A DNA stretch of 64,000 nt from Candidatus Zixiibacteriota bacterium (GTDB lineage Bacteria > Zixibacteria > MSB-5A5 > GN15 > FEB-12). This document shows positions 13,441 to 47,500 of this stretch, one piece after another; positions within the stretch are counted from its first letter, which is position 1; the number at the start of each line of letters is the position of its first letter. The position numbers and the translations under genes are program-made. The DNA is taken from the NCBI GenBank assembly GCA_019038695.1, contig JAHOYZ010000006.1, positions 17,112 through 81,111 of the forward strand, in the 5' to 3' direction. The notes under the pieces are model-generated. The model was not told the origin of the DNA and did not search any database. It worked only from the letters and a program-made list of their open reading frames with translations.

Positions 13441-13910
13441 GTTGTTCCTCCGTTAATTTTATCCTGGATATCGTATTATTGTTATCATAACCGCTCTGCT
13501 TGCCAGTCTTTGATCCTGCGACCAACAAAAACCATACCAAATATGAATGTTCTAATCTGAGGAATGCGGTAGGCTCGGATTATCGCCTATGCATGCATAC
13601 TCGACTTTCGCTTCTACGCCATTTCGAAAGTCACCTCGTCGCGTTCCAATGCTATATAATAAGCAGAAATTGGCATTTTGGCAAGGCACGAGTTGTCATT
13701 TGGGGGATATCCGAGAGCAATGCCTCTGTCCACGTAGAAGGTGGACTATGGTGCTTACAAATGCGTTGCCGGCAGACAAGAGAGGTGGACTTGCCCGATT
13801 GATCGTAGATCGCCACCGCGCAATTTACTCAGTATATCCTTCATTTGTTTTCGCTCACATTGTTATTGTGATTCGCTTGTTGAGTCGTTCTTGTCCTTCC
13901 AGTTCCACCA

Positions 13911-14837
13911 TTACTTTGTGTCGAGAATCGCGACACGACCTCTCCACGGTAGCCTGATGACCAGAATGGCCATCAGCAAGTAAGTCACTACAGATACAAC
14001 TGAGGCTTCCATCCCAAAACTACCTCCAGTGACAAATTCGTTTCCTGTAAGCTCAACTTCGAACAAACCGGCTTCCGCCTCCTTACCACTCATAGTGATT
14101 CCCATTATCCCTTTCAAACAGAAGTTCCACGCCACATGAAACCCGACTGGTAACCACAGAGACTGGCTCCTGATATACAGAGCAACAAAAAGGAAACTGA
14201 CTGCGACACCCGCCACGATTATCCATAAGGCGTCCCCGATTGTGATGCTGCCCAGCTTACCGATAACGTGCGCCGCTCCAAAATAGACTCCACCGATGAT
14301 TGCCGCAACAATCCAGCCATATCGTATTGCGATTTCTCGAACCGCCATACCCCGGAAAACAACTTCTTCTGCGATTCCAGTAAACATCGCCATACACGCG
14401 TAGCCTATGAAGACCGCTATCGCTTCTTTGGATTGCAGCGGGTTGGGCGACCAGCCAAGCTCCGCACAACCCAATAGCTTAAGAACCAGGATAACGGCAA
14501 ACGGTAGAAGCAACCCCAGGCTCAAACCATAGAGGAGATACTTGAAGTCGAATCGCAGACGCATCCACTCAAAGCTTCTTCGCCACAAGAATTTAGTGAC
14601 TAGGAATACAAGTGGAATTCCTATGACGACAGCAGCCAGAGCAATGACCAGATCGGTCTGATAGCTCGTGAACTCCCCACTCATGATTGCCCCAAAACTT
14701 ACGCCACTCGTCCTGGCTACGACGATAGCCCCCACATACTGGTACATATTCATCAGTATATATAGCCCGAAACTCCACAAAACGACAAGGAGGGCATTCC
14801 TGGGTACGATATTACTTGTATTCACTATGTTCCTCAT
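13911..14837 (-). CDS. CPBP family intramembrane glutamic endopeptidase (CAAX protease/Abi family)
   Basis: Multi-pass membrane protein with motif 1 GIAEEVVFRG (EE...R), motif 2 FGAAHV (F...H) and motif 3 HVAWNF (H...N). The ORF opens at TTG 14879. ATG 14837 (MRNIVNT..., after AGGAAG) seems more plausible because a terminator ends about 10 nt upstream of 14879. Confidence 0.8.
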   Translation of the reverse strand: MRNIVNTSNIVPRNALLVVLWSFGLYILMNMYQYVGAIVVARTSGVSFGAIMSGEFTSYQTDLVIALAAVVIGIPLVFLVTKFLWRRSFEWMRLRFDFKYLLYGLSLGLLLPFAVILVLKLLGCAELGWSPNPLQSKEAIAVFIGYACMAMFTGIAEEVVFRGMAVREIAIRYGWIVAAIIGGVYFGAAHVIGKLGSITIGDALWIIVAGVAVSFLFVALYIRSQSLWLPVGFHVAWNFCLKGIMGITMSGKEAEAGLFEVELTGNEFVTGGSFGMEASVVSVVTYLLMAILVIRLPWRGRVAILDTK

Positions 14838-31584: not shown

Positions 31585-32457
31585 TTAATCGACATGAAAA
31601 CCTATCCGGCGTCTCTTCAGTCGCTTAAGATACTCCCCCATCGAGACAAACGGGAAATCACTCAGAAGACGATCAAGTTTGCGAATGAAAACCGATGTTG
31701 ATCCGTACATACGGAAGCGTTGTATAGCTGATAAATCGTCAATTCTGGGCGGATCGGGATCGATTTCCCAGGGATGCATGTAGACCATTACGGGCCGGTT
31801 GTCGGCATTAAGACGTCGGATCATCCAGCGTGTATACCAATATGGCGAGTGACGCAGAAAACCGCCACCGCCGATAGGGATATTCTGTCCCAGCAACTGG
31901 TAAGTTGAAGCCGGAATTTCGTACAAACTACGACCACTTTTCAGGTTCATCTTGAACGTATGCCGAGGGCCATCAGGGATACCATAGATGTCATGCTTAA
32001 TAGGAAAAACGGAGCTATCGTACTCGAAGCCTAACTCGGCCAGAATTTCAAACGCCCAAGACGTGCTGGGATCAACCGACCAACTGGGTGCCCGATAACC
32101 ACTCGGCGAGCGACCGAGGGCACTAACGATAGCCCCTATCGCCATTTTGGTATCCTTGCGAAACGTATCCGGTTCCAGGGTGTTGACCCGGACGTGTGCA
32201 TAGCTGTGGCAGGCAATCTCGTGTCCTTCTCGTTGGATTTCACGGAGCAAATCAGGATAGCGATCAGCCACCCAACCAAGTGCAAACCAGGTGGCAGTGA
32301 CTTCTCGAAACCGGAACAGCTCCAACAGTCGACGTGAATTCCTGACTACCGTTGACTGCAGTTGGCCCCAATTATCGCGCGAATAACGATTAGATAAAAC
32401 TTCTACGGCGAACCACTCTTCAAGGTCTACTGTAAGAATGTTATTTGTGAACTCCAT
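31585..32457 (-). CDS. Polysaccharide deacetylase, PEP-CTERM/XrtA-locus type (with DUF3473-like C-terminus)
   Basis: ILTVDLEEWF, TWFALGWVADRYPDLLREIQREGHEIACHSYAH, and a C-terminal MHPWEIDP....I region. These resemble the TIGR03006-type deacetylases found in EPS loci. Confidence 0.75.
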   Translation of the reverse strand: MEFTNNILTVDLEEWFAVEVLSNRYSRDNWGQLQSTVVRNSRRLLELFRFREVTATWFALGWVADRYPDLLREIQREGHEIACHSYAHVRVNTLEPDTFRKDTKMAIGAIVSALGRSPSGYRAPSWSVDPSTSWAFEILAELGFEYDSSVFPIKHDIYGIPDGPRHTFKMNLKSGRSLYEIPASTYQLLGQNIPIGGGGFLRHSPYWYTRWMIRRLNADNRPVMVYMHPWEIDPDPPRIDDLSAIQRFRMYGSTSVFIRKLDRLLSDFPFVSMGEYLKRLKRRRIGFHVD

Positions 32458-32475
32458 TCGAGCTCATCTCAAAGA

Positions 32476-33297
32476 TCAGGGAAAACGTTTAGGAGTATCG
32501 TTGTTTTTCGAGGTCAACCGTGAGGCGGTTTGCCTGGAACTCCGGGATCGCGATTGTCTCTTTCTACGTCGATCTCCTCGTCGATGTTTCGCACTGTCGA
32601 CCGGACTATCGTAGTCATAGTACTTATAGTCGTAGTAATAAGGCAGACTGTTGTTCATGTTGTTGAGTACGACCCCTGTGATACGATTGCCATCGGCTCC
32701 AAGAATGTCCACAGCTCGCTCCACAACTTCTTTTTGCGTCGCTCCAGCCTTGACAACCAGTAATATAGCATCCATCTTCGGAGCCAGGAGCATCGGGTCC
32801 GATACGGGCAGAATCGGAGCGCAGTCTACGAAAATCAGATCATAGTAGAACTTTAAGTCATCAATGATGCGACTGATTACCTCAACATTGAACAACTCCG
32901 ATGGACGCTCACTACGCAAACCAGCATTAATGATGTGCAATTGCTCCAGATCGGTCTGTCTTACCACCTTAGCTGCGCTAAGGTCACCAGACAACACTTC
33001 GGCCAATCCCCTTTCACGATCCATACCGAATAACTTGTGGATCGAAGGACGTCGAAGATCGGTATCAATAATCAACGTCTTGAGCCCCTTCTGTCTGGCT
33101 GCGGTCAGGGCCAGGAACGAACATATAGTTGATTTCCCCTCAGCCAGCATGGCGGAAGTAATCATTATAGCCTTATTCTCAGACTCCGTTGAAAAACTCT
33201 GGATGCGCTGCAACAAACGGCGAAACTCCGTTGCTACGGGTAACTCAGGAGAGTAGAAGTCAAGAATTGAAACCGGCCGTCGTGCCATCAAAGTCAA
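32476..33297 (-). CDS. Polysaccharide biosynthesis tyrosine autokinase (BY-kinase, CpsD/CapB family)
   Basis: Walker A ITSAMLAEGKST, Walker A' LIIDTDLRRP, Walker B IFVDCAP, and a C-terminal Tyr cluster LPYYYDYKYYDYD. Confidence 0.85.
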   Translation of the reverse strand: MTLMARRPVSILDFYSPELPVATEFRRLLQRIQSFSTESENKAIMITSAMLAEGKSTICSFLALTAARQKGLKTLIIDTDLRRPSIHKLFGMDRERGLAEVLSGDLSAAKVVRQTDLEQLHIINAGLRSERPSELFNVEVISRIIDDLKFYYDLIFVDCAPILPVSDPMLLAPKMDAILLVVKAGATQKEVVERAVDILGADGNRITGVVLNNMNNSLPYYYDYKYYDYDSPVDSAKHRRGDRRRKRQSRSRSSRQTASRLTSKNNDTPKRFP

Positions 33298-34415
33298 CCT
33301 TTCTTGACTATGCGGTCGAGCGCCGCGTTCATCGCAGACAGTTCCTTCTTGGCTTCTTCATAACAAGTAGCTGCTATTCCAAGCGAGGGGTTCAGCTCTG
33401 TTGTCTTGCGGTAACTCATCACACCCTTTTCCCAAAGCACACGGGAGTACTCCAGGTAACAACGAGAGAGGTCGGAATATAGATCCACGTACATAGGATT
33501 ACCCTCGATCTTCCCCTCCAGGTATCGAATCTGATCGCGGAGCCTTTCCTCAGAAATCATCTGCGGATCCAGGGTTTGCTTCATATGGAAACCAGCAAAT
33601 TCTCGTCTGTGTTTTTCCTGTTTTTGTCGTCTGATACGGGAGAACAGCTCGAACGCTTTATCCAAGTCTGAGTTGGCAATGGCTCTCGTTGCTTCCTCGA
33701 ACAGGGAAGAATCATAGTCCGGGTAAATCAGTACAGCTTTCTTGAAACATTCCATCGCTTTGCTCACCGTCGCTGCGCGCGAAGAAGCGTCCGATTGCTG
33801 TGGTGCCTGCGCGAGTAGAACCATACCGAGATTAAAGTACGCATCGGCGTAGTACAAATTTAGTCCCAGAGCTTGTTCAAATTCACCTACTGCCTGATCG
33901 CTGGCTCCGTGCGCATGGAGAGCAAGACCAAGGTTGTTGCGGTAATCGGCAAAGCCTGGTTGTTGCTTTGCCGCTTCGTACAGCATCTTGGCGGCTTCCT
34001 CCGGTTGACCAAGGGCCAGTTCGGTCAAACCAAGGTAATTAAAAGCAAGGTGGCTCTGAGCATTCCGGACAGTCGCATTCTGGAACAACTCCCGAGCCTC
34101 AAGAAAATACTGTTTGTAATAAAAGGCGATGCCTAGCTGGGTCAGTGAGTCGGAACTGCCATCCTCCAGCGCGTGTCGAAAAGCCTCCATCAGATATTCG
34201 ATCTCGTTCTTCTTCTTTTCGTGAACGCTCTTCAGTAGCGAGACAACGTCATCCGCATCATAATCCTCAAGCTGCGGATGTGTATCCGTCTCGACCAGTA
34301 CGCCATTGATCCATACTTCAGACGAAATCGCAGCAGCGCTGATGTCATTGCGGGTCTTGATCAGGAACTCCCGATCACTCTCTACGAGCTTGCTCTTGAG
34401 CTGATAGGTTTCCAT
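33294..34415 (-). CDS. TPR repeat protein of the EPS locus
   Basis: Several TPR units (e.g. AFNYLGLTELALGQPEEAAKMLYEAAKQQP and ADAYFNLGMVLLAQ). There is a 4-nt overlap with the kinase gene. Confidence 0.65.
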   Translation of the reverse strand: METYQLKSKLVESDREFLIKTRNDISAAAISSEVWINGVLVETDTHPQLEDYDADDVVSLLKSVHEKKKNEIEYLMEAFRHALEDGSSDSLTQLGIAFYYKQYFLEARELFQNATVRNAQSHLAFNYLGLTELALGQPEEAAKMLYEAAKQQPGFADYRNNLGLALHAHGASDQAVGEFEQALGLNLYYADAYFNLGMVLLAQAPQQSDASSRAATVSKAMECFKKAVLIYPDYDSSLFEEATRAIANSDLDKAFELFSRIRRQKQEKHRREFAGFHMKQTLDPQMISEERLRDQIRYLEGKIEGNPMYVDLYSDLSRCYLEYSRVLWEKGVMSYRKTTELNPSLGIAATCYEEAKKELSAMNAALDRIVKKG

Positions 34416-34418
34416 AGT

Positions 34419-35921
34419 TTACTGTCGGATCCTCTTTAGTTTGTCGATTCGAGGGACGGTAGCCAACACTGGGAGATTCAAAATTTCTTCAATGTCGCTG
34501 ATCTTCTTGAACGAATTATCAAATATCTCTGCCAGAAACGCCGCAGCACCACCCAGCATTAGCCCTAACATCAGCCCCATCCCCAGAATTTTATTCTGAT
34601 CAGGCCAGAAATGAGTCAACGGAATCTTGGCTGGTTCAATAATCCGGTACTTGACTCGGTCCTTGGCACGCTCAGACAAAATCGTGACGGTCGCTTCCTC
34701 GGAGCGAAAGGCATCTCGATACTTGCGGGCATCAGCTACCCTGCGTTCGAGTTCGGATATTTCGGACTGAAGACGCGGTAATTGATTTATCCGCGCGTCC
34801 ACGCGAGCCACAGACCGTTCCATCTGACGTTTCCGTGATCGGAGCACATCGAGATGTTCTTCTACAATGAAATATTCCCTTAGCAACTCGCGTTGGTTTT
34901 CAGGATATGAGACAAATTGTGCATCTACGGCCTCACCAATAGCAAACACAAGTAAACGAAGATTATCATTGAGACGAATATTGACATTGATCACGTTCTG
35001 TTCGTTCCAGGCGTATTTTTCCATAAGACTGGCATAACGTATGACCTGAGCATCGATTTCGGAACGCAATTCCACGATCGTATCGGTGTACTTCACTCTT
35101 ACTTGTTCCAACCCCAGAGCTCGCAACTCGTCTAGCAGCCGCTGCCGGTCACTTTCATAGTCCTCTAACTCCAGTTGTGCTTTATCAATGTCGGAGAGGA
35201 CATCGCGACGATTCGAATCCGACGAAATGTTTTCCGGCAATTGCAATTGAGTCATACGCATCTGGGCAGCAGTGAGGGAATCAATCATCTGTTGATAGTA
35301 GAACTCGGTCTTTTCCAACTGCAGATCAGCGAATGACTGGTTGTCGAGAATCCTCTCCATCTCGTATCGTGTTTTCTCCCGTTCAAGAATCGCCGCTAAA
35401 GTGGTGACCATGTCGCGCGCTTCCACAGGATCGGGACAGACAGCCGTAAGGCGAATCTGGTCAGCCCCGGCAAAAGAAACCGACACCTGCTTCCGCAACT
35501 GGTCAACAAGAAGATTGAATTTCATTTGCTCCAAGGAAAAGGACGGATTTTCCTCTCGCAAACGAGCGGCCCGACGAATAATCTCCGGGTCCTGATCCAT
35601 CCCTTGTTCACGAATGAGCTGATGAAGATAAGTCTGTGAGGTTATTTCGATCTGAAGCGCACGCAGTCGTCGCCGACTTTCTTCACCACTTTCACGACCC
35701 GCTCGCTCACGACCAAGTATACTGACTAACTCTCGAGAAACATTATGCGGACGATCAATCCAAATGATAGTAGAAGATTGATACTTGGGAGCCAGGAAAT
35801 AGGTAACCCCATACGCTATGGCCGTCACGATGATCAAAGGAACAATCACCAGCCATTTGCGCTTGACTATAACCGAGATAATATCCCGTACGTTGACAGA
35901 TTTTTCGCGCTTGGTGTGCAT
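34419..35921 (-). CDS. Polysaccharide chain-length determinant protein (Wzz/GumC family)
   Basis: N-terminal Wzz region IISVIVKRKWLVIVPLIIVTAIAYGVTYFLAPKYQSST, a long coiled-coil periplasmic region, and a C-terminal TM GMGLMLGLMLGGAAAFLAE. Confidence 0.8.
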   Translation of the reverse strand: MHTKREKSVNVRDIISVIVKRKWLVIVPLIIVTAIAYGVTYFLAPKYQSSTIIWIDRPHNVSRELVSILGRERAGRESGEESRRRLRALQIEITSQTYLHQLIREQGMDQDPEIIRRAARLREENPSFSLEQMKFNLLVDQLRKQVSVSFAGADQIRLTAVCPDPVEARDMVTTLAAILEREKTRYEMERILDNQSFADLQLEKTEFYYQQMIDSLTAAQMRMTQLQLPENISSDSNRRDVLSDIDKAQLELEDYESDRQRLLDELRALGLEQVRVKYTDTIVELRSEIDAQVIRYASLMEKYAWNEQNVINVNIRLNDNLRLLVFAIGEAVDAQFVSYPENQRELLREYFIVEEHLDVLRSRKRQMERSVARVDARINQLPRLQSEISELERRVADARKYRDAFRSEEATVTILSERAKDRVKYRIIEPAKIPLTHFWPDQNKILGMGLMLGLMLGGAAAFLAEIFDNSFKKISDIEEILNLPVLATVPRIDKLKRIRQ

Positions 35922-35930
35922 AAGTCGGAT

Positions 35931-36896
35931 CTATTCCCTCGTACTATCTCCGTTGCTGTCCAAAAGATTCCAAATGAGCACCGTCGAAGTCACAACACCG
36001 ATCAGACCGGTGATGTTGGCAATACTCAAAATGCTGGAACGACGAGCCGCGACCACCACCACATCCTCTTTCTGCATCGTGTAACGAGTTAGTGTTCCAA
36101 GCCGGGTATATTTATCGAGATCAAGTTGAATGGTCTGACCGAAGTAGCCATCTTTGGTTATCACTTTCGTCTTGCGCAGATCAGCCATAGCGGTTGGACC
36201 ACCTGCCAGAGCTATAGCCTCAAGCACATCAACATTCTCCTCAAAGGTAATCGGACCCGGCAGCCCCACCGCACCCACAACGTAGATGAGGTTCTTCTTC
36301 TCTCGGGCTGTACCAAGTTCAGGCGACGGAAACCCGATGGGCATGCGTGGGATTTCAATCGTATCCTCACGACGAATCTTCGGCAATTCGTTCATTGTAC
36401 CGTTGGCTATAGCCGCACTCACATTCACGATTTCAACCTGACCCGCGTTGTCTCCACCTCGGATGATTGTTACGCGACTGAGGTCACCAATTTCGGTCAC
36501 TCCACCAGCTTCATTGATGATACTCCAGAGGTCCGGTATTTCTTCAAACGTCCACTTGCCCCCATCGTTCACCTGCCCCGTAACAAAAACGTATTGGTGG
36601 TTGAATGCCGTAACCCTGACCACCGCCTGTGAGATATTCTTGTTTAACCTGGACATTCGGCGAACAATGTCAACTTCGAGCTGCGCTGTAGTCCTGCCAG
36701 CAGCGTCGATTTCGCCCACCACGTCCAGAGATATCTTCCCATCTTGATTAACGCGTACATCGGAATTGAGAGCGGGGTCCTGCCAGAAACTGATACTCAA
36801 GATATCCCCCGTTCCCACCTTGTATTCACTGGCCTGAGCGCAGACTGCCATCATGACAACCAAACTCACAACGATCAACAAACAACATTTATTCAT
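35931..36896 (-). CDS. Polysaccharide export protein (Wza-like, Poly_export + SLBB domains)
   Basis: Signal peptide, then YKVGTGDILSISFWQDPALN...V.QDGKISL..VGEI.AAG.T. Two SLBB-like segments follow (VFVTGQVN..G and IYVVGAVGLPG). Confidence 0.82.
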   Translation of the reverse strand: MNKCCLLIVVSLVVMMAVCAQASEYKVGTGDILSISFWQDPALNSDVRVNQDGKISLDVVGEIDAAGRTTAQLEVDIVRRMSRLNKNISQAVVRVTAFNHQYVFVTGQVNDGGKWTFEEIPDLWSIINEAGGVTEIGDLSRVTIIRGGDNAGQVEIVNVSAAIANGTMNELPKIRREDTIEIPRMPIGFPSPELGTAREKKNLIYVVGAVGLPGPITFEENVDVLEAIALAGGPTAMADLRKTKVITKDGYFGQTIQLDLDKYTRLGTLTRYTMQKEDVVVVAARRSSILSIANITGLIGVVTSTVLIWNLLDSNGDSTRE

Positions 36897-37050: not shown

Positions 37051-38691
37051 CTAAACGGCTTCATCGAAAAGAACAGACTTATTGCGGCCACTGGACTTGG
37101 CTTCCAGAAGGGCCATGTCGGCAAAGTGAATGAGCTGCTTAGGAACGTCGGCGTGATCCGGGTAGACCGCTCCGCCCAGCGAAACTGTACACCCCAAACG
37201 CTCATCGGTACCAGGGATGACAAAACTCGTTCCCGCTACGTCACCCTTTAGCCGCTCCATGAATTTCAGACAGGTTGTAGCATCAGTTTCGGGCATGATA
37301 ATACAAAACTCATCCCCACCATAACGTGCGATAATGTCAATAGCACGAATTGATCTCCGGAGGATACCCCCCATCTGCTTGAGGACAGCATCTCCAGCCA
37401 GATGACCATAAGTATCGTTGGTGGCCTTCAGACCATCGAGATCGAAGATTATAAAAGCCAGTTTCCGGTCATAGCGCTTTGCTCGCTGGATCTCCTCGTC
37501 CAGACGACGCCTGAAATACCTCTGGTTGGCCAGACCTGTCAGTCCGTCGGTGTATGACATTTCCTCAATACGTTCAAACGATTCGGCATTGTCCATTAAA
37601 TCAGCGGCGCTCGTCCGAGCTACCTGCAGTTTGTCTTTCAAAGATACTTGTGGTGATCCTCCACTCCAGGCCAGCACACCAGGACAATCCGGAGTGAGTG
37701 AAAATGAAGCTATGCTTTCTAATCCTGCCTCTCGCAAAGACGAAGCCCAAACTCCCATCGGTGTTTGTTCGTCCGCCAATTGCCCAACCGGCATCGTCGC
37801 CTTGTCAACGACTTTCAGAAGATTATCCAGGCAATCCTGGTCGGGAGCCAGAAGGGCCCGAGAAAGACCTCCCTGGACCAATAGCGGGTGAGAATTTTTC
37901 TTACCATTCCTTCGATATAGAAAAGCAATCCGATTGATATTCAAGTCTTCGCGAATTGAGTGGATTAGCTTCGGGATTATCGTCTCCGCATTGCGATGTA
38001 GCACAAGTTTAAGTAAACTGCTTGGAGCAGCTACCGGCGGATTGACGGCAGAGATGGCATCGGGTGGGTTTACTTCGTCAAGCCGCTTCTGCATCCGTTC
38101 GATGCGCGATTCATGCCATTTAACATGATACGCAGCCGACAACGACTGCGCCATACTGGCCACCAGTACATTAAATGACCGTGAATCGGTATGAATGGTG
38201 CTGCGCACAAAGTAGACACCGTACAGATTATCACGCCAGAACACAGGGAAGAAAAGATCAACTTTGCTCTTGCTGATCGTCCGAAAATACCGGTCGGGCA
38301 ACACCCCCTGGAGGGCAGCTATTGGCCGCGGCAAGAAATCAGCTTCCAGCACTTTGGACAATTTGGTACCGGCAACAACCCTATACGCTCGCCGGTCGGG
38401 ATGTCCTAAGCCATGTTGATAGTTGAGCTCAAGCCAGCCCCGACGCTTACGTAAAAACAGAACCCGATCACATCCGCACGATTCCTCCAGTAGAGTGGAC
38501 ACCTTGCGGGCCACCTCGCCGATAGTTCCGCCAGCACTATTGGACAGCAGAAATCGGGAGAAATCGGACAGATTCATCCCCTTCATCACAGCCATCTGTC
38601 GCCTCTCGTTTCGAATCCTCGAAACGAGCATCAGCGACAGGATTCCGGTCAAAATGACCAGCGCAACTATAAGAACTGCTTGGTAATCCAT
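37051..38691 (-). CDS. Membrane-anchored diguanylate cyclase (GAF-like regions + GGDEF with intact I-site)
   Basis: N-terminal TM. The C-terminus reads YTDGLTGLANQRYFRRRLDEE...FIIFDLDGLKATNDTYGHLAGD...RAIDIIARYGGDEFCIIMPE. The RAID motif lies 5 residues before GGDEF, which matches the RxxD I-site. Confidence 0.85.
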   Translation of the reverse strand: MDYQAVLIVALVILTGILSLMLVSRIRNERRQMAVMKGMNLSDFSRFLLSNSAGGTIGEVARKVSTLLEESCGCDRVLFLRKRRGWLELNYQHGLGHPDRRAYRVVAGTKLSKVLEADFLPRPIAALQGVLPDRYFRTISKSKVDLFFPVFWRDNLYGVYFVRSTIHTDSRSFNVLVASMAQSLSAAYHVKWHESRIERMQKRLDEVNPPDAISAVNPPVAAPSSLLKLVLHRNAETIIPKLIHSIREDLNINRIAFLYRRNGKKNSHPLLVQGGLSRALLAPDQDCLDNLLKVVDKATMPVGQLADEQTPMGVWASSLREAGLESIASFSLTPDCPGVLAWSGGSPQVSLKDKLQVARTSAADLMDNAESFERIEEMSYTDGLTGLANQRYFRRRLDEEIQRAKRYDRKLAFIIFDLDGLKATNDTYGHLAGDAVLKQMGGILRRSIRAIDIIARYGGDEFCIIMPETDATTCLKFMERLKGDVAGTSFVIPGTDERLGCTVSLGGAVYPDHADVPKQLIHFADMALLEAKSSGRNKSVLFDEAV

Positions 38692-38750
38692 GTGAACACT
38701 CTATTAGAAATATAGCCCCGGATACGCAACTGTCAACCAGAAACAACGCT

Positions 38751-39425
38751 TCAGCGACGCCCCCGGGCAAACCGGAATCGAGAACGTCGGCGGACCAAAC
38801 CTCGTCGCCTTAAAACTCCGAAAACATCCCACCAACCAACCCGGTCGAACCCGCCCATACCTCGCAAATCCCGACCAATCTCCCCTATAGTGGCAAACGG
38901 GTCGTCTTTAACCAGACGCAGGATCGCCGTTTCAAGATTGCCGCCACCTAACATTCCACCGAGATCATTGTTTATTGTAAATTGATTGCTAGTAGATTTG
39001 GAGGTCAAATCATCACTGATCGAAACCGCTGTCAACCGTCCGCTTTTTTTTTTGGATGAAACCACTTCGGAGCCGTTGCCAAAATCGACACGGGCTTCGT
39101 CTATTGAAGTATAGGACCGTAGAACCTTATCAAACTCCAGCAGTTCATATATCTCGTATACATTCGGAATCATACTGGCCAGCTTGATATCGCCATCGTT
39201 GTCGCGAATGTCCTTGATATGGGAGATAAATATCCCCCATCCGGCAGAAGAGATATAATCTACGCCAGCCAGATCAATCAGAATCGCATATCGTTGGCGC
39301 TTCAGAAGCGAATCAATAACGGCTTCCAATTCACCAGCTGTCGCGGTATCAATAACACCATCCACCCGCACTTCGGAGACTCCCTGGCGGTCACCTTCGG
39401 AAAGCGATATTGAGATGTTATTCAT
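38751..39425 (-). CDS. STAS-domain anti-sigma-factor antagonist fused to a C-terminal winged-helix-like segment and poly-Arg tail
   Basis: aa 1-115 carry the STAS signature ILIDLAGVDYISSAGWGIF...LEFDKVL. aa 163-210 read LETAILRLVKDDPFATIGEIGRDLR...VFGVLRRRGLV. The tail reads RRRSRFRFARGRR. Confidence 0.75.
   Translation of the reverse strand: MNNISISLSEGDRQGVSEVRVDGVIDTATAGELEAVIDSLLKRQRYAILIDLAGVDYISSAGWGIFISHIKDIRDNDGDIKLASMIPNVYEIYELLEFDKVLRSYTSIDEARVDFGNGSEVVSSKKKSGRLTAVSISDDLTSKSTSNQFTINNDLGGMLGGGNLETAILRLVKDDPFATIGEIGRDLRGMGGFDRVGWWDVFGVLRRRGLVRRRSRFRFARGRR
39044..39053 (-). repeat. A10 homopolymer (T10 on + strand) in the linker of the STAS gene
   Basis: The minus strand reads TCC AAA AAA AAA AGC, encoding SKKKS at aa 124-128. 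I noticed no longer homopolymer in the window by eye. Confidence 0.95.
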
Positions 39426-39713
39426 ATGCTATATTCCGTGTCAAGACTTCTGATCTTCTGTTGCGTTCAATGAACCGTTTGGTAAGACCATAGGCAACAA
39501 AAAAGGTGAGGACAGTCAGGACACCTGAGTAACAGTCAGAGAAACGACGAGATTCTTGACCATTCGGGGTGATTGTTGTATTATCATAAACTGAAAGTGG
39601 TAAACCGTGTTTTTGAAACCTTTATATTGGAAATCTCGGATAATAAGAAAAGGAATAATATGCGATTCTGTTGAATTATTATAAAATCCTGAAAATATTG
39701 AAGGAGAACAGTT

Positions 39714-40448
39714 TTGAATTATCACAGTTTCATTATCCATTCAGTAAGAACGTTTATTACGTTTATTTTACTGACTAGCTGCTTGTTTGCACAGACTGAT
39801 GAAATAAACTGGGTAACAGTTGGTAAACCAATGCCTGATATTGCACTCCCCTCTTTCCAGGGCGAAGAAGTGAAGATTTCCCAATTCAAGGGAAAGAATG
39901 TAATGTTGATTTTCCCCAGGGGCTATGCGATGGAAGGAATGTGGTGCCCCAATTGCATATATCGACATGCTCAACTAGTAGAGTATGAGAAGAACAACAA
40001 GATTCGTGATCGCTACAACCTGGAAATTATATATGTACTTCCATATAGCAAAGAATTGATTCAGGATTTTCTAAATTCTTTCCCAGCGACTTTAGCACTA
40101 ATCAATGATTGGAAGAATCCTCCCGGTTATGAAGAAATGGACGAGGACGGAAAAGCATTTATCGATCATATCAGAGAAATTGCACCAGAAGATTTAACAA
40201 TGGACGAAGGAGAAGAGACGCCAACACCATTTCCAATCCTCATCGACGAGGACAGTGAATATTCCAAGGCTTTAGGAATATTCCGGACAGAGTGGTCAGG
40301 AAGTAAAGTGGATCAGAATATTCCCTCTGTTTATATAGTAGATAAGGATGGTATTCTTCAGTTTAAGAATATAGCTCAACATACTTTCGATAGACCTAGT
40401 CTTGATTATCTAGTTAAGATGTTATCGTATATATGCGGAGAGGAATAG
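39714..40448 (+). CDS. Secreted thioredoxin-fold protein (AhpC/TSA-redoxin family) with CxxC
   Basis: TTG start 8 nt after AAGGAG, followed by a signal peptide. LPSFQGEEVKISQFKGKNVMLIFPRGYAMEGMWCPNCIYRHAQL. About 33% G+C in a 120-nt hand count, against about 49% in a mutS sample. It is the only plus-strand gene between 5175 and 64000. Confidence 0.7.
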   Translation: MNYHSFIIHSVRTFITFILLTSCLFAQTDEINWVTVGKPMPDIALPSFQGEEVKISQFKGKNVMLIFPRGYAMEGMWCPNCIYRHAQLVEYEKNNKIRDRYNLEIIYVLPYSKELIQDFLNSFPATLALINDWKNPPGYEEMDEDGKAFIDHIREIAPEDLTMDEGEETPTPFPILIDEDSEYSKALGIFRTEWSGSKVDQNIPSVYIVDKDGILQFKNIAQHTFDRPSLDYLVKMLSYICGEE

Positions 40449-40453
40449 CATTT

Positions 40454-40522
40454 GTAGGTCAGAACCCCTTGCGGTCCTGACAATTGCGTTTATTGTCAGG
40501 TTGGTAGGCAACTGTGACCTAC
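40454..40522. repeat. REPIN-like inverted pair of GTAG-headed elements
   Basis: The + copy (40454-40483) is GTAGGTCAGAACCCCTTGCGGTCCTGACAA. The - copy (40493-40522) read on the minus strand is GTAGGTCACAGTTGCCTACCAACCTGACAA. The inner arms CCTGACAAT / ATTGTCAGG are a perfect 9-bp inverted repeat around a 7-nt loop. Confidence 0.7.
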
Positions 40523-40530
40523 AACAGGAT

Positions 40531-40561
40531 GGCGGAACCGCTAAGAAGGGTTTCGCCCTAC
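40531..40561 (-). repeat. REP-like element, same subtype as 10480-10509
   Basis: The minus strand reads GTAGGGCGAAACCCTTCTTAGCGGTTCCGCC, compared with GTGGGCTGGAACCCTTCTTAGTGGTTCCGG at 10480-10509. Confidence 0.65.
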
Positions 40562-40587
40562 AAGATTAATGGGGCAGACAAGGGCAC

Positions 40588-40615
40588 GTCAGGTTGGCAA
40601 GCAACCGTGACCTAC
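40588..40615 (-). repeat. REP-like element, same subtype as 40493-40522
   Basis: The minus strand reads GTAGGTCACGGTTGCTTGCCAACCTGAC. It differs at three positions from the copy at 40493-40522. Confidence 0.65.
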
Positions 40616-40619
40616 ATAA

Positions 40620-42629
40620 CTACTCGTCTTCTGTTACAGATTTCGTTTCGGTCATACCGTCGTCAGGACTGCATGACCTGGCAAGAACGAATGTTATGTC
40701 ATCGGATGGTTTGGTGAATCCGGCGAAATCGTCCAGAGCATCCAACAGACTCTTGCCCAGTATGGTCGTGGTAAGCGTTGCATCCCCACCGTTTAGTTGT
40801 TCCTCAAACAGCTTTGTGAGGCGATCCAGACCATACGTCTCCCCATCACGATTGGATGCCTCGGTGACACCATCGGTAAACATGAAGAAGAAATCCCCAT
40901 CCTCAAGTTCAAGGCTGACTTCTTCCAACCTATCCTCGAATGAGAACTCAAGCGTAACTGGCATCCCCACTGGCATTCCGGTGGGATTCAAAGTCTCAAT
41001 CGTACTGGAAGACCGTCGATAGAGAAGCATCGGATTATGCCCAGCCGATACGAAATCGAGCTTTCGCTGAGCGGTGTCATACATAGCCAGCATGACAGTA
41101 ATAAACATGCCCGGAGGAATGTTGTGGCGCAGGTAATCGTTGACCTTTATAAGCGTCACCTTGGCCGAAGCTTCGTGCGCCGCATGGATCTGTATGACCG
41201 TACGTAGCATCGACATCACCAGCGAAGCTGGTACCCCTTTGCCGGAAACATCGGCAACTACAAGACAGTACCGACCGGGATCAGTCTCAAAGACATCATA
41301 GAGATCTCCTCCGATAACTTCCGCCGCCCGATAGAATGTGTTTAGTTCCAGCCCCGGCAGATTCGGTAGTTTGTTCGGCAGCAGAGTCTTCTGGATGTGT
41401 GAGGCTACTTCAATTTCCTTGGCCATCTTCTCGCGCGCCACTATATTCTCACGATCCTGACTCACACGCGTCATCAGTACATTGAACGCCTTGGATATTT
41501 CGAAGAACTCCTCAGCTCCCTCCAGTGGCAATTCCGTCGTTAGATCACCGGAGGCAAGTCGCCTGACGCGCTGTGTGATTTTAACTATCGGATCTACAAA
41601 ATAGCTGGAGAGTAGATAGACTCCAAGAACGCCAAATAGCAACAGCACCAGAGTCAGCAACACGGCATCCTCCCGCGATTGAGCTAACTCACCCTCAATG
41701 TAGGCGGCACTGTATGTGATATGCACCATACCTGCCATACCGGTGTTAGTAACTATGGGAACCATCAAATAGAACAAGTCAGCTCCATCAACAATCAATC
41801 GCTGTGGAGTTGATTGGTCGTTCTTGTCAATACCGTCGGGGAAAGAGTATCCCTTGCGAATATTGTGGATGTCATCGGAATGCGCCACAATATTACCTGC
41901 CGGACTGGTGATCACTACCAGTCGGAGGAACTCAGAATTCGATTTGGCATAACTCACAACTAACTCATCAAACTCGGCATCAGAGCGACGGTTTATCGTA
42001 TAACCTGCGGCCTGCGCTGCAATAGTACTCCCCAGAGAGGCTACTGTTTCGTCCAAGTGCGATTGAACTTGACGTGATATTCGATCATCGACGTATATAG
42101 CAGAACCAGCCAGAATAATCAGCACAATCATAGTGGTCCAAACCGAGAACTTAACCCGCAACCCAGTCATCCGTCTTAACAGAGGAACACTACCAGCCGA
42201 TGAGGGACGAATGCGTTTAATCATCCGCAATTCATTGTAGCCAGCCGACGAAATGTATTCGACCGAATCCATAATCTTGCCGATCATATAGAACCCCAGG
42301 CCACCCTTACGGCCGGATTCGACCAGATGCTCCAGATCTATGGTACCTTTTTCGGAAGCCTGAAATGATCTGCCGGTATCAATTAGGGATAAGACAATAA
42401 GCTTGCGATAGATTACAATTCGGAGCCGGATAGTCCCCTTCTCATAAAGGTACGCATGCCGGATAATGTTGGTGGCCCCTTCTTCAGTGGCCAACAAAAC
42501 GGCGTTGACATCTCGGGATGACATGCCAGCAGCCACGCAGCTTTCCCGCGCTGTTCGCTGCAGACTGTCGAGATATTTCTCTTCCGCAATGAACTCGGCT
42601 GTTATCTCTTTTACAGGACGTCGCCACAT
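40620..42629 (-). CDS. Fused partner-switching enzyme: RsbW/SpoIIAB-like kinase domain, TM, extracytoplasmic sensor, TM, HAMP and PP2C (SpoIIE/RsbU-type) phosphatase
   Basis: aa 1-140 carry HATPase_c_2-like motifs (N-box EEGATNIIRHAY, IDTGRSF, GRKGGLGFYMIGKIMD). TM helices lie at about 161-180 and 321-345. HAMP reads DPIVKITQRVRRLASGDLTTELP...FNVLMTRV. PP2C reads EVIGGDLYDVF......LVVADVSGKGVPASL...FVSAGHNP...FMFTDGVTEA. Confidence 0.75.
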   Translation of the reverse strand: MWRRPVKEITAEFIAEEKYLDSLQRTARESCVAAGMSSRDVNAVLLATEEGATNIIRHAYLYEKGTIRLRIVIYRKLIVLSLIDTGRSFQASEKGTIDLEHLVESGRKGGLGFYMIGKIMDSVEYISSAGYNELRMIKRIRPSSAGSVPLLRRMTGLRVKFSVWTTMIVLIILAGSAIYVDDRISRQVQSHLDETVASLGSTIAAQAAGYTINRRSDAEFDELVVSYAKSNSEFLRLVVITSPAGNIVAHSDDIHNIRKGYSFPDGIDKNDQSTPQRLIVDGADLFYLMVPIVTNTGMAGMVHITYSAAYIEGELAQSREDAVLLTLVLLLFGVLGVYLLSSYFVDPIVKITQRVRRLASGDLTTELPLEGAEEFFEISKAFNVLMTRVSQDRENIVAREKMAKEIEVASHIQKTLLPNKLPNLPGLELNTFYRAAEVIGGDLYDVFETDPGRYCLVVADVSGKGVPASLVMSMLRTVIQIHAAHEASAKVTLIKVNDYLRHNIPPGMFITVMLAMYDTAQRKLDFVSAGHNPMLLYRRSSSTIETLNPTGMPVGMPVTLEFSFEDRLEEVSLELEDGDFFFMFTDGVTEASNRDGETYGLDRLTKLFEEQLNGGDATLTTTILGKSLLDALDDFAGFTKPSDDITFVLARSCSPDDGMTETKSVTEDE

Positions 42630-42688
42630 AATGTATGAAACCTATCGGGAAACCGCGCGTGAGTCTAACAAAAAACCGGAGAATAATC

Positions 42689-44515
42689 TCATTCGCCCGG
42701 TTGAGACTGCATTCGCAGTCGGGCCTGCTCGATATTGCGAAGCGTACTTTCGTTGTTGGGGTAAGCCTCGAGGACTTTCTGCCAGGCTTCGATAGCCAAT
42801 TCGTACTGTTTGTCACGCATATATCGAAGACCGTCAAGATAGAGAGGCCATATCACCCGGTCACGCTGCATCATCTCCAGGGTAGGAGGATGCTCCAGTG
42901 CGGTATCGATACGCTCGATATATGCCTTCGATACCGGCTCATCCGGGTTGGCAGAGAGAATTGAGGAAAATAAACTCCTGGCCTCATCGTAATGGCCAAT
43001 TCTGAACTGCGTTATCCCTTCATTGAGCATCCGGGCCAGGTCCATCTTGCTGGCTGCCTCCTCCTGCGACTGGCGGACGGTAGTGTTTTCCGGGTCCAGA
43101 TATAAAACGCGGGAATACAATTCGATGGTCTTCACTATTTCACCCCGCCGCTCGGCCTGATGTGCCTCCAGCAAACAGGAATCAATCTCTCTGGCTACCG
43201 CCTTCGAAACAGTATCTCTTAGATTAAGAGCCAGAGTGTTCTCGGGCTCGTAATCCAGAATCAATTCAAGCATATCCTCGGCTGCGGGATAATATTTCTT
43301 CTCAAAGAAACTCTGCGCCTGAGCAAAGAAAGCGTCAATAGTCATCGCCTGGTCCCGCTCAGCTTCACGGACTCGTTGCTCCTGCTTAAGCTGGGAGGTT
43401 CGTGCCCGTTCAATCGCTGCTACTGCCCTCAGAATCCGCTGGTTGTCTTCGTCAAAGGCCAAAGCACGCTGATAGTTGACAAGGGCTGAATCGAGAACAT
43501 AACTCTCGTAGAAATCGTCCGCCTTCTGGCGATAGAAATCAAACTGCCGACGACGCTCCACATCCAGCATATCGGTACTCCGGCGCTGATCCTCCTGCTG
43601 CCTGCGCCTAATCTGGTCGGAAACTGTTGTCCCCAACAACAGTGCCACCGAGAAGCGATGGCTATCCTCCACGTAATCGTGAACCTTATAGGCATAATCC
43701 AGTAGAAGACGTTGATATCGCAACCCTATGCCAAAGGACAGATTGTCACGGTCGTATCCGGTTCGAAGTGAGTAGTGGTCATCGAACAACAATTCTCCAC
43801 CGCAATGAACACGGACCGATCTGTCTTCTGTTTTTTCCATCTCCACCGAAAGTGACGACTCAAGCCGCTCCGACCACCTCAAATTGGTTGCTGCCAATCC
43901 AACCGCAAGTGTTACCGGAAGCGTCTCCTTGACAGTCTGCAGTTGCAACGTGACCGGAACAATATCCCGCGCCACAACTCCGGCTTGTACATATTGACTC
44001 AACCTGGCCGTCATTCCAAAATCCAGTCCAATGCCATAGTCGGAATAAGTATCCAGTTCCTGATTCACAATCTTCAGTGACACACCGGCTGCGAGACCAC
44101 CCTGGAGTCGGCGTCCATAGGACAAAAGGAACTGCGAGTAGGAATAGTCGAACATACCTGTCCGGCGATAGTCTTCCCGCCTGATAATGTCGTTGGTGCC
44201 GAGCCGCATGTAGGCCAGACCGAAGCCACCCTGACTCGGAGTGGGGTAAGCCCAGGCAACGAAGTCATAAATCGTGCCCTCAAAAAGAGACATGTGCATG
44301 AAGCTGACTTCATGATAATCAAGTTGTGGAAGTCCGGCTGGATTATAGAAAATGGTGGATGCGTCATCAGCTATAGCTGTGAAAGCACCACCCATCCCAA
44401 GAGCGCGAGCGCCTGCACCGACAGTGAATGGAGACTCACGCCCGGCATCTCCTGCATGCACAGTCGCACAACCCAACGTTAACACCATTAGGAGTATGAT
44501 ACATCGGGTCGTCAT
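42689..44515 (-). CDS. PorV/PorQ-like outer-membrane beta-barrel fused to a ~300-aa coiled-coil/TPR domain
   Basis: Signal peptide. aa ~25-295 start with VGAGARALGMGGAFTAIADDASTIFYNPAGL and end in RFSVALLLG, a barrel-like pattern. aa ~300-608 hold a coiled coil plus TPR units (ALVNYQRALAFDEDN, AIEAWQKVLEAYPNN). Its start overlaps the stop of the 1225-aa gene (ATGA). Confidence 0.6.
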   Translation of the reverse strand: MTTRCIILLMVLTLGCATVHAGDAGRESPFTVGAGARALGMGGAFTAIADDASTIFYNPAGLPQLDYHEVSFMHMSLFEGTIYDFVAWAYPTPSQGGFGLAYMRLGTNDIIRREDYRRTGMFDYSYSQFLLSYGRRLQGGLAAGVSLKIVNQELDTYSDYGIGLDFGMTARLSQYVQAGVVARDIVPVTLQLQTVKETLPVTLAVGLAATNLRWSERLESSLSVEMEKTEDRSVRVHCGGELLFDDHYSLRTGYDRDNLSFGIGLRYQRLLLDYAYKVHDYVEDSHRFSVALLLGTTVSDQIRRRQQEDQRRSTDMLDVERRRQFDFYRQKADDFYESYVLDSALVNYQRALAFDEDNQRILRAVAAIERARTSQLKQEQRVREAERDQAMTIDAFFAQAQSFFEKKYYPAAEDMLELILDYEPENTLALNLRDTVSKAVAREIDSCLLEAHQAERRGEIVKTIELYSRVLYLDPENTTVRQSQEEAASKMDLARMLNEGITQFRIGHYDEARSLFSSILSANPDEPVSKAYIERIDTALEHPPTLEMMQRDRVIWPLYLDGLRYMRDKQYELAIEAWQKVLEAYPNNESTLRNIEQARLRMQSQPGE

Positions 44516-47500
44516 TTCACCACCGCAAGCTTGAGTCGTGCCGTTTCACCCGTGTTCACGACCCGGATGGAGACAATATAAACACCGTTGCAAACTACCT
44601 GACCATCGTTGTTGAGACCATCCCACTCAATCACATGTTCTCCAGCTCCATTGTCCTGGCTGGATATGTCGCGAGCATACACTTCTTCGCCAGTCAACGT
44701 GAAGATACGGAACTCGATATCTGAGGCCGCCGTCAATTCGTACGAAAACTCGACTGGTGCTTTGGTCGGATCGACCGGGTTATTGCGAACCAAAAACGAC
44801 TCGGAAATAGATGATCCCTTGACGACGAACGTCATCGCCAACAGCGTCCCGTCACCACTTTCGGAAACAACATCAACAGTCTCCCCCTCCTGTATTCCAC
44901 GGTCATAAGTAGCCAGAATATGACGGCTCTCGAGAAGCAATTCGAACTGGTCGATATTACTTTCACGGATTGCCGCCACAAACACCAGACTGCATGTCAC
45001 CTGAGCCTCAATAATGAGATCCTCGAAGACTGCCGTCATACGGTCATTGCCGCTTAGGTCAGCCGCTATCGGCAAACCGTTCCGGTAGAAGACAGATGCG
45101 CCCATGTCGATGATTTCGGAAACATCGAGAGACTGGTCGCCCGGACCACGAAGCGTAAAAGACATCTCATCCAACGACACAGCAGTAGCATCAGCTGTCC
45201 CACCGTTAGTCAGAATCAGCAGGAACAATTCCTTGTCTTGCCCCGGAAGAAGCAGATTTGAGCCGGGCAGTTCAGCTCTGCCCAACAACTCAGCATCGAA
45301 ATGCTGTACTGTTATCTCTATGAAGAACGAGCTGTCACCCGCACTGGCCCGTACACCAGTGTTGATGTCAATTGGCATCGATGTTAATGTGAAAGTAAGA
45401 ATAATGTTCGTGTCAAATGATGGCGACTGGAAATCCAATTCCATGTGCTGATCCACGCTAATGATACCGGTCGGGCTGTATCCATCACCAAGGTCGATCC
45501 CTCCGGTCGTCAGGAGGTACTCTCCATCCGTAGTCGCGGCCTGCCCCTCATTGACGAGTTCAATTATCAGGGAGAACGCCTGGTCTTGATCGACCAGACT
45601 GTTTTCAACTCCGACCAGACTGTAGTTCAAAACCAGTTGTGCCGGAGTTTCTATGACAGCCGTCGCCATATCATCAATCGGATCATCCGCTCCCACATGA
45701 GGCGAAGCGACGGCAACTCTGAAGATTTCTGCTACCACCGGTTGATCGGCAGCAATAATATCAAATATAAGTTCCGCAGTATCATCGGGCTGGATGACAT
45801 CCACGGTAAAAAGGGAATCGAAAGCCGAGTTACCGTCACTGCGCAGAACCATATCCAACGGACCCAGGATTGTACCCGATGTATTTGCCACCCGCGCTCG
45901 CACTTGAAAAGCCTGACCCGTATTGACGTAAGGTGTGTTGAAGGTAAGCACTTCAGTACTTATAATCCTGACTATCGGAGCTGCTGTCACCGGAACCGCC
46001 GTCGTACTCAGATCAGCTACAAAACCAAACGAAGCCCACGCGCCAGGAATCAGAAATTCGAAACCGGCCTCAAAACGTAACATCTCTCCCTGCTGAGTTA
46101 TGGGAATGAAAACCGGATCGGTCGTCACCAAATTCAGCCCGGGATACAACGTCATATCAGCAATACGCAACAGAGCAGCAGACAAGAAATCTTTCCCATG
46201 TATTTCTATTATCGCCCCTGAAGGATCGACCGGCACGCTATACTCACCGTCAAGGTTCACAGTGAATCCAAATGAACTCTCGCGACCTGCACTTACCATA
46301 GCTGGGCCGAAACTCCCCTCGACATATGTAACTTCGATCTCGGTAAGGACAAAAACAGAATCGATAATCTTGTGGGTTATCAGATAGGGAACTCCAGCAG
46401 ATACATAAGCATAATCAAGCACGACATCATACCACCCGGAAGGCAACAAATCGACACCCGGCACCAAAACCGATACATGTTCATGGCTAATAACGACGCC
46501 AGTAACATGACTGAAACCCGATGTCTCCGTCAGAAAAACCTCTGTAGCCCCACCGTCGCTTGTTAAGGCAACACGCATGGTGGGACCTATCGTGAAATCC
46601 GGAGGATCAACGGCGTGAATGTCTAATGATATCTCTGACGTGATCCCCGGGTACAAGCTATCGGGCCAGAATAAACCGGGGACGACCTCCAGTTCAACCG
46701 GCTCGATCGGTTCAACCACGACTACTGTCAACTCAACCTGATTTGTTGTAGTAAACATCATCCCATCAACGTTGAAATCGGCCTCAAGTACAACCGTCAG
46801 GTTATCTTCGAACAATTCAGACCTTGGCCCTGCCAGTAGTATCTCTACCGTATCGACCAAACCATTTGCACCAGCTGCGAAACCAACTGAAGCCGTTAAC
46901 CCGCTGGTAAGTGCCAGAGAGACTGTCGAAGTCTGTGGCGTGTTATATCCATTATTCGTGACAACAACTTTAACCAACGTGCCAATCGTAGGAGCGATTG
47001 AGATCAACGGTGCATTGTCGGCATTGAGAACTTCCAGAATGTCATACCCGCTGAATGAGACCACCTGGCCGGAGGATACCAATCCGTCGTCTGTTTCGAC
47101 CGTCACGGTCGTGACAACAGTAGGACCCGTGTAAACTATTCCGATAGCATCAAGATCAACGACACCCTCAAAAAGTAAACCGGCATTATCAATTACGGCC
47201 GGAGCGAGGTTACCAACGTTGGTCGATAGATAGACCGGATTCGTAGTGAGATCATAATCAATTTTGAGATTGTCAAAAGCATCTAATAAAATCAGGCTTG
47301 CTTCAGGCAAAAGAGGATAACCCACAATCTGTTCGGGACTAATGTCCAACTCGAACCGAGCCAGCGCCCCCGGCAAAACAGAGATCATGCCTGACAATCC
47401 AGTCACGTTTCCGACCCTTGCCATAACCCTGCCCTCGCCGACGGTCGTAACGTGAAGCATCGCACCGGAGAAATACCCTATCGGATCGGAACCCTCTTCA

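Follow-up and report, generated by a model that had tools for sequence, protein, structure and literature searches.

Partner-switching modules are a major, under-studied signalling currency of bacteria beyond two-component systems. Chlamydia RsbU couples a periplasmic sensor to a PP2C phosphatase, and in Pseudomonas aeruginosa SiaABCD comprises the membrane HAMP-PP2C protein SiaA, the kinase SiaB, the substrate SiaC and the diguanylate cyclase SiaD. HsbR of P. aeruginosa and CrsR of Shewanella oneidensis are REC-PP2C-kinase/anti-sigma regulators with the STAS partners HsbA and CrsA (PMC6482189), and HsbA controls the cyclase HsbD (PMC5085249). According to a 2025 survey, some bacterial PP2Cs carry kinase domains (PMC12088040). 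Here we analysed a 64,000-nucleotide stretch of contig JAHOYZ010000006.1 (positions 17,112 to 81,111, hereafter the window) from a Candidatus Zixiibacteriota bacterium, in which a single gene encodes an RsbW-type kinase domain and a PP2C phosphatase domain on either side of a membrane sensor. Literature searches found no description of this exact architecture or of partner switches in Zixibacteria. An earlier note on this DNA, made from the sequence alone, held that soluble multidomain fusions of the two enzymes are known in actinomycetes. Such soluble fusions do exist, but the actinomycete-only picture is incomplete, given the proteobacterial HsbR and CrsR (PMC6482189).

The fusion is not wholly novel, because soluble fusions of PP2C and kinase are already known (HsbR, CrsR and Rv1364c). 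Its parts are well known and their arrangement is new, but this does not make it a new kind of system; it probably controls a neighbouring switch protein that regulates exopolysaccharide production. What sets it apart is the kinase-first order, the transmembrane (TM) Cache/HAMP sensor between the enzymes and the conserved envelope/exopolysaccharide context. We assign a probability of roughly 0.6 to the reading that the protein is a membrane sensor in which a tethered, more or less constitutive kinase and a signal-regulated phosphatase act on a neighbouring STAS protein, setting exopolysaccharide or biofilm output. The gene and its parts are as follows (aa, amino acids; AF2, AlphaFold2; pLDDT, predicted local distance difference test).

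40620..42629, minus strand: fusion gene, 669 aa, kinase, Cache sensor, HAMP and PP2C (open reading frame and Pfam)
42216..42587, minus strand: RsbW/SpoIIAB-type GHKL serine kinase domain, aa 15-138 (PF13581, RsbW alignment, Foldseek, invariant residues)
42150..42215, minus strand: basic, flexible tether between kinase and TM1, aa 139-160 (conservation, length spread, pLDDT, gene junction in the unfused locus L060)
42087..42149, minus strand: TM1, aa ~161-181 (Kyte-Doolittle peak with 5 K/R upstream; AF2 helix 157-213)
41667..42086, minus strand: periplasmic single-Cache (sCache_3_2-like) sensor, aa 182-321 (PF17203, AF2)
41598..41666, minus strand: TM2, aa ~322-344 (Kyte-Doolittle peak up to 2.78, 4 K/R downstream)
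41445..41597, minus strand: HAMP, aa ~345-395 (PF00672 match at aa 340-390, E 2.5e-8; P347 and E374 conserved)
41283..41444, minus strand: helical HAMP-to-PP2C linker, aa 396-449 (conservation 0.63; AF2 helix 372-416)
40677..41282, minus strand: PP2C/SpoIIE phosphatase domain, aa 450-651 (PF07228, PDB matches, conserved Asp)

The encoded protein is 100% identical to the NCBI entry 'SpoIIE family protein phosphatase [candidate division Zixibacteria]'. Its order from N to C terminus (HATPase_c_2 kinase, TM1, periplasmic single-Cache, TM2, HAMP, PP2C/SpoIIE) is the one claimed in the earlier note, which had a ~140-aa extracytoplasmic segment in the place of the Cache domain, and was borne out by Pfam, hydropathy and AF2. 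The domain and motif matches are far beyond chance. HATPase_c_2 (PF13581) matched aa 15-138 with an E of 1e-19 and 71.3 bits against a cutoff of 27.4, covering positions 3-127 of the 127-position profile, and SpoIIE (PF07228) matched aa 450-651 with an E of 5e-46 and 157.5 bits against a cutoff of 25. The motifs quoted in that note were all recovered, both those of the kinase (EEGATNIIRHAY at aa 49-60, IDTGRSF at aa 83-89 and GGLGFYMIGKIMD at aa 109-121) and those of the PP2C domain (GGDLYDV at aa 440-446, ADVSGKG at aa 459-465, SAGHNP at aa 528-533 and FTDGVTEA at aa 584-591). The sCache_3_2 match (PF17203, aa 186-318) was sub-threshold in this protein (23.4 bits against 28.4, E 7e-5); the same domain is already annotated on many orthologues in precomputed records, and AF2 gave a confident alpha/beta fold for the region (pLDDT about 90). 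In the AF2 model as a whole (mean pLDDT 81), the kinase, Cache and PP2C domains are all confident. NCBIfam returned partial matches only, to RsbW at the N-terminus and to SiaA at aa 321-648.

Hydropathy identified exactly two TM segments, at aa ~161-181 and 322-344. These surround the extracytoplasmic domain and HAMP follows straight after TM2, as in a HAMP-linked TM sensor. The five K/R before TM1 and four K/R after TM2 give an N-in/C-in topology, which places both catalytic domains in the cytoplasm and not on opposite sides of the membrane.

Both active sites are intact. Conservation was scored on an alignment of 87 diverged family members, each standing for a cluster formed at ≤50% identity. 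E50, N54, D84, G86 and G112 of the kinase were conserved at 99-100%, so the ATP-binding residues on which the kinase assignment hinges are present, and the wider Bergerat set (E50, N54, H58, D84, G86, G110 and G112) was conserved at 94-100%. Alignment with Bacillus subtilis RsbW (6m36, E 2e-8) put the N-box (E50..N54..H58), G1 (D84-x-G86) and G2 (G110-L-G112) in register, and Foldseek matched the domain to 6m37_A, RsbW in the RsbV/RsbW complex, with a TM-score of 0.88 and a root-mean-square deviation of 2.2 Å. The PP2C metal ligands D442, D445, D460, D586, D643 and D644 were likewise conserved at 99-100%. The best PDB sequence matches of this half were Rv1364c (3ke6, E 5.5e-12) and SiaA-PP2C (6k4e), and Foldseek returned SiaA-PP2C (6k4e, TM-score 0.85), Rv1364c, RssB and SpoIIE.

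The search of related genomes proposed in the earlier note showed the architecture to be widespread in uncultured phyla of the FCB group (Zixibacteria, KSB1). It was present in at least 120 protein clusters (the best 120, full length at 58-100% identity, from NCBI, JGI, ENA and Logan), which the JGI pipeline names 'serine phosphatase RsbU / anti-sigma regulatory factor (Ser/Thr protein kinase)', and a scan of one genome per species retrieved 55 fusion loci, essentially all from Zixibacteria. An exhaustive HMMER search covered 1.84 billion representatives at 50% identity, and its best 150 matches were examined. An N-terminal kinase and a C-terminal PP2C occurred together in 95/150, candidate division KSB1 among them, and about 80 of those 95 had two TM segments in between; about 45 of the 150 were unfused Cache-HAMP-PP2C proteins of roughly 500 aa. 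Many relatives carry C-terminal extensions of helix-turn-helix (HTH) modules and TPR repeats, up to a total length of 2,253 aa. Another extended relative, the 1,511-aa P0149 (L064, 7001-11536), has kinase, Cache, HAMP, PP2C, HTH and three STAS domains on one chain; the genes after it encode a ParA-like ATPase, a TPR protein and two further STAS proteins that stand alone (13772-14582).

Unfused homologues encode the kinase as an adjacent separate gene, which indicates that the fusion arose within a Sia/Rsb-like partner-switching module. For P0220 (L060, L061), the sCache-HAMP-PP2C gene has immediately upstream of it a HATPase_c_2 gene for a 138-aa protein, and the two share a GTGA overlap, so the loss of one stop codon would create the fused form. 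The small kinase of L060 aligns to aa 49-141 of the fusion and its phosphatase aligns from aa 151; on this alignment, the tether corresponds to the former gene junction. At L066, four separate genes (GAF-GGDEF, HAMP-PP2C, STAS and HATPase_c_2 kinase) form a Sia-like layout, and L067 adjoins Wzy_C/TPR envelope-polysaccharide genes.

The presumed substrate is the STAS protein encoded nearby, an open reading frame that the earlier note had singled out, with its DYISSAG motif, as the obvious target.

38751..39425, minus strand: STAS protein, 224 aa, presumed substrate (PF01740, TIGR00377, AF2, Foldseek, synteny)
39249..39251, minus strand: Ser59 codon, predicted to encode the phospho-acceptor, the initial S of DYISSAG (invariant in 43 orthologues)
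38751..38942, minus strand: HTH-like C-terminal helical module, aa 162-224 (pLDDT 83-94, hhalign)

Reading frame and motif (aa 56-62) were confirmed. The protein passed TIGR00377 (ant_ant_sig; 58.4 bits against a cutoff of 53.45) and its model matched SpoIIAA and RsbV from kinase complexes in Foldseek (TM-scores 0.87-0.92). The motif DLAGVDYISSAGWGIF, with S59/S60 in the DxxxxSSxG pattern, was invariant in 43 orthologues. Ser59 we take to be the acceptor by the motif of SpoIIAA S58 and RsbV S56. The candidacy of the STAS protein as substrate is strengthened by synteny, with its gene after the fusion in about 43/46 Zixibacteria loci and 60-130 bp 3' of it, by its being the sole STAS gene of the window, and by the STAS domains on the same chain in P0149.

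The STAS domain (aa 1-117) is followed by a disordered linker (aa 118-161, pLDDT about 30) and a four-helix tail (aa 162-220) with the pattern DPFxSIxEI...GWWxVF...RSRFR. In hhalign (probability 95.3%, E 2e-8), the profile of the tail matched a module that comes after PP2C in the extended relatives, located at roughly aa 690-760 of P0126, P0138 and P0149 and matched there by Pfam HTH_28/23/32. On the STAS tails themselves, Pfam gave only sub-threshold HTH hints (HTH_21 E 0.016, HTH_Tnp_Tc3_2 E 0.11), and STAS matches dominated a Foldseek search with the whole model, which did not resolve the 60-aa tail. By the hhalign match, the module has moved between STAS and fusion partners; it may serve in DNA binding or partner binding. 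That the same tail domain sits on one or the other partner by lineage is further evidence that fusion and STAS protein work together.

In the mechanism we propose, the fusion product would be a homodimeric inner-membrane sensor whose RsbW-type kinase hangs from TM1 by a flexible basic tether and phosphorylates Ser59 of its STAS neighbour more or less constitutively. The periplasmic single-Cache would sense an envelope or extracellular cue and pass it through TM2, HAMP and the conserved helical linker to a PP2C dimer acting as the regulated eraser. The linker between HAMP and PP2C was the most conserved segment in the alignment (mean 0.63) and the stretch between kinase and TM1 the least (0.24); across the family the tether varied from 5 to 39 aa (median 21), was rich in R/K/S/P/G and, with a pLDDT <50 at aa 144-155, is predicted to be disordered. 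A tethered constitutive writer with a regulated eraser is suggested because the tether is variable and disordered, the HAMP-PP2C connection is conserved and homologues use a free kinase. A published model has HAMP and other sensor coiled-coil linkers dimerising and activating RsbU-type PP2Cs (PMC12143880). Fusion would fix the kinase-to-phosphatase ratio at 1:1 and hold both enzymes at the membrane, and because of this stoichiometry and co-localisation, STAS phosphorylation should follow the signal and not expression levels. The state of the STAS protein would in turn set exopolysaccharide or biofilm output, in Zixibacteria most likely through an adjacent GGDEF cyclase and cyclic di-GMP (c-di-GMP), possibly also through its own HTH-like tail. 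Precedents for a STAS-type protein acting on a diguanylate cyclase are SiaC, which activates SiaD, HsbA, which acts on HsbD, and the Bgr system (PMC7647112, PMC8457831, PMC5085249).

The downstream GGDEF and exopolysaccharide context was missed by the earlier note. Besides the fusion and STAS genes, the neighbourhood contains the following.

42689..44515, minus strand: UPF0164/TPR protein, 608 aa, conserved partner gene upstream of the fusion (Pfam)
39714..40448, plus strand: AhpC/redoxin gene between fusion and STAS (Pfam)
37051..38691, minus strand: GGDEF diguanylate cyclase, 546 aa, with TM, ~350 aa and GGDEF at aa 380-538, candidate output (PF00990)
31585..36896, minus strand: exopolysaccharide export genes Poly_export/SLBB, Wzz, TPR, AAA_31 and Polysacc_deac_1+DUF3473 (Pfam on called genes)

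Almost all Zixibacteria loci with sufficient flanking sequence share one order on one strand: giant FlgD_ig surface protein, UPF0164/TPR, fusion, STAS, GGDEF and Poly_export. The GGDEF gene follows STAS, co-oriented with the fusion, in about 40 related loci. In the window its GGDEF domain matched PF00990 with an E of 2e-43, with the GGDEF and RxxD motifs intact in translation, and its N-terminus (aa 1-379, 37555-38691, one TM) had no Pfam match even at E up to 10; this part is likely a docking or regulatory region. Directly downstream of the GGDEF gene, the presence of Poly_export, Wzz, TPR, AAA_31 and Polysacc_deac_1+DUF3473 identifies 31585-36896 as an exopolysaccharide export locus; its AAA_31 ATPase is BY-kinase-like and its Poly_export gene is syntenic in relatives. 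Kinase domain, PP2C, STAS and GGDEF each occur only once in the window.

The core is shared more widely than the GGDEF link. Relatives at 31-43% identity keep the giant surface protein, the ~600-aa TPR protein, the fusion and a long STAS protein (221-236 aa), and this persistence indicates that the pairing of fusion and STAS is ancient. The genes after this core differ: TPR and GGDEF in L062; Poly_export, Wzz, ParA and deacetylase, without GGDEF, in L063; ParA/AAA_31, TPR and further STAS genes in L064 and L065; and nothing related in KSB1 (L058). The envelope/exopolysaccharide theme is thus general across loci and the GGDEF link is lineage-specific.

Upstream, a 1,225-aa surface protein ending in FlgD_ig overlaps the UPF0164/TPR gene by 4 nucleotides (pair at 42689-48189, minus strand). 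The pair always stands just upstream of the fusion, from Zixibacteria to KSB1 and other relatives, in which the giant first gene grows to >3,000 aa, and its products may be among the things that the Cache domain senses. The spacer at 40449-40619, between redoxin and fusion genes, contains two 29-nucleotide direct repeats (40495-40523 and 40588-40616) that are 90% identical and have no further copy in the window. Between these repeats, at 40535-40554, lie the overlapping ends of two Logan contigs from the same sample, which suggests a branch of the assembly graph. Across 38600-42800, promoter-like sites were no commoner than in shuffled sequence and no terminators were found, a scan that is uninformative on operon structure.

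The fusion could in principle be a frameshift or assembly artefact, or its kinase half a degenerate, inactive remnant. The overlapping kinase and phosphatase genes of unfused homologues mean that a single-base error could mimic a fusion. The full-length architecture recurs, however, in all the clusters, the 55 loci and the 95 diverged representatives described above, the window region is matched exactly by two independent assemblies, and the ATP-binding motifs are 99-100% conserved. An artefact is ruled out on these grounds and the whole explanation is effectively refuted already. A more substantial alternative is that of the earlier note, in which one ligand-driven conformational change, carried by TM1 to the kinase and by TM2/HAMP to the phosphatase, sets the two activities reciprocally. 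Both enzymes flank one sensor on the same side of the membrane, the fusion is kept in 95/150 best representatives and is therefore selectively maintained, and within Zixibacteria conservation extends to a juxtamembrane motif before TM1. Toggling of a fused PP2C and kinase by a single input also has precedents in HsbR and CrsR (PMC6482189). Against this, a tether of 5-39 aa with a conservation of 0.24, no family-wide sequence, a P/G/S/R/K-rich composition and a pLDDT <50 would be a poor mechanical transmitter. Homologous systems (L060, L066) run on a separate soluble kinase, encoded at differing gene positions, and in canonical partner switches it is the phosphatase that is regulated. Reciprocal control is therefore unsupported by the present data and we regard it as unlikely.

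The N-terminal domain might instead serve mainly as a membrane-anchored anti-sigma or binding module, like RsbW, SpoIIAB or CrsR-D3, that holds a sigma factor or another target at the membrane until the binding of dephosphorylated STAS protein frees it, with transcription as the output and GGDEF secondary. RsbW is its best sequence and fold match, HATPase_c_2 proteins of that type typically combine the roles of kinase and anti-sigma factor, the systems of KSB1 and L063 occur without GGDEF, and an HTH-like module is found on the STAS protein and on some fusion proteins. Furthermore, in CrsR and in HsbR the D3 domain binds RpoS (PMC6482189). However, the genes called over about 10 kb to each side include none for a sigma factor, and the conserved neighbours are envelope/exopolysaccharide genes, plus GGDEF in Zixibacteria. 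The strict conservation of ATP-binding and catalytic residues argues that phosphotransfer itself is selected, and this alternative too appears improbable. The tethered kinase with a regulated phosphatase accounts best for our data in our estimate, and several observations weigh against it. Conservation of PLLRRMxxLRVKF just before TM1 within Zixibacteria means that some coupling of kinase and TM1 is possible. In this genome, the redoxin gene on the opposite strand separates fusion from STAS, an insertion that is found at that position in none of the 55 related loci, and STAS and GGDEF are not adjacent to the fusion in L005, L012 and L048, where the downstream part was rearranged away. The absence of GGDEF beside the system in KSB1 (L058) and L063 makes a c-di-GMP output lineage-specific at best. 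The AF2 model of the fusion has a predicted TM-score of only 0.44, which makes its inter-domain arrangement uninformative.

The STAS gene contains a further conserved element at the junction between domain and tail.

39044..39053, minus strand: A10 tract (T10 on the plus strand), candidate slippage or recoding site, conserved in relatives

An uninterrupted run of A9-A11 separates STAS domain and tail in 46/46 Zixibacteria loci (positions in L002-L056). Taken against the frame of the STAS domain, that of the tail is -1 in 32 loci and +1 in 4, and the two are in-frame in 10, the window included; tails in the -1 frame often have no start codon in that frame. Just 53% of the Lys codons of these genomes are AAA. 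Of the 51 A-runs of at least 9 across 893 kb of related loci, about 46 are this tract, and the window has no other homopolymer of that length. One A gained or lost in the mRNA of the window would give a STAS-only product of 137 or 130 aa. Distant relatives encode the long STAS form in-frame and without an A tract. Homopolymer sequencing error was ruled out as the source of the frame differences, since 46 independent assemblies keep the tract, and it is further countered by the consistent -1 offset in 32 loci and by the conservation of the tail protein in all 46. The pattern suggests programmed transcriptional slippage or -1 frameshifting that would yield STAS-only (~130 aa) and STAS-tail (~225 aa) isoforms; phase variation at the tract is an alternative. 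The tract resembles the sites of transcriptional slippage in Thermus dnaX or mxiE (PMC1088944) and is a candidate for a new example of programmed slippage within a signalling gene. Were slippage at A9-A11 to supply STAS-only and STAS-HTH isoforms to a reciprocal single-ligand writer/eraser, one sensor would drive both c-di-GMP/exopolysaccharide and DNA or partner binding, a combination that we consider highly doubtful.

Kinase first, with a TM Cache/HAMP sensor between the enzymes, is a third, independent way to fuse writer and eraser. Fixed stoichiometry and location would in theory make its output robust to expression noise, and the compact single-gene system lends itself to finding out on which half of a partner switch a membrane signal acts. 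Its conserved position heading exopolysaccharide loci provides an entry point, open to testing, to biofilm control in phyla without a cultured model.

Compared with known systems, the fusion resembles Chlamydia RsbU in being a membrane sensor phosphatase (PMC4552016). It shares its three protein families with RsbU/RsbV/RsbW and SpoIIE/SpoIIAA/SpoIIAB, and likewise its predicted phosphorylation site, a serine of the STAS protein. Those canonical systems have a separate soluble kinase that also sequesters a sigma factor, whereas here no sigma factor was called within about 10 kb and the system has GGDEF and exopolysaccharide genes as its neighbours. Rv1364c of Mycobacterium tuberculosis carries phosphatase, kinase and substrate-type domains on one chain, as does P0149, but is soluble, senses through PAS, follows the order PP2C-kinase-STAS and lacks TM, Cache and HAMP, in contrast to the membrane-bound fusion. 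HsbR and CrsR also combine PP2C and an RsbW-type kinase in one chain with a STAS partner (PMC6482189). They are soluble, with receiver input and PP2C before kinase, whereas the fusion has its kinase at the N-terminus, the Cache/HAMP membrane sensor in between and no Pfam Response_reg match.

SiaABCD has the same two-TM, HAMP and PP2C phosphatase, and SiaA is the best, albeit partial, NCBIfam match. To this it adds a kinase that opposes the phosphatase, a small switch protein that can be phosphorylated, and a neighbouring GGDEF cyclase controlling aggregation or biofilm (PMC7647112, PMC8457831). As in SiaABCD, the phosphatase, kinase, switch and cyclase genes are clustered, here in about 40 loci, with the redoxin inserted in the window. 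Unlike in SiaABCD, the kinase forms the N-terminal part of the phosphatase chain and is not a separate SiaB, the periplasmic domain is Cache-like, and the presumed substrate is of the canonical STAS type (TIGR00377, SpoIIAA/RsbV folds), extended by a tail, and not of the SiaC type. Membership of SiaABCD was rejected on this difference in substrate and on the scores for SiaA (NF038263, 75.1 bits against 700) and SiaD (NF038266, 141.7 against 290). Despite this non-membership, the fusion system probably works like SiaABCD.

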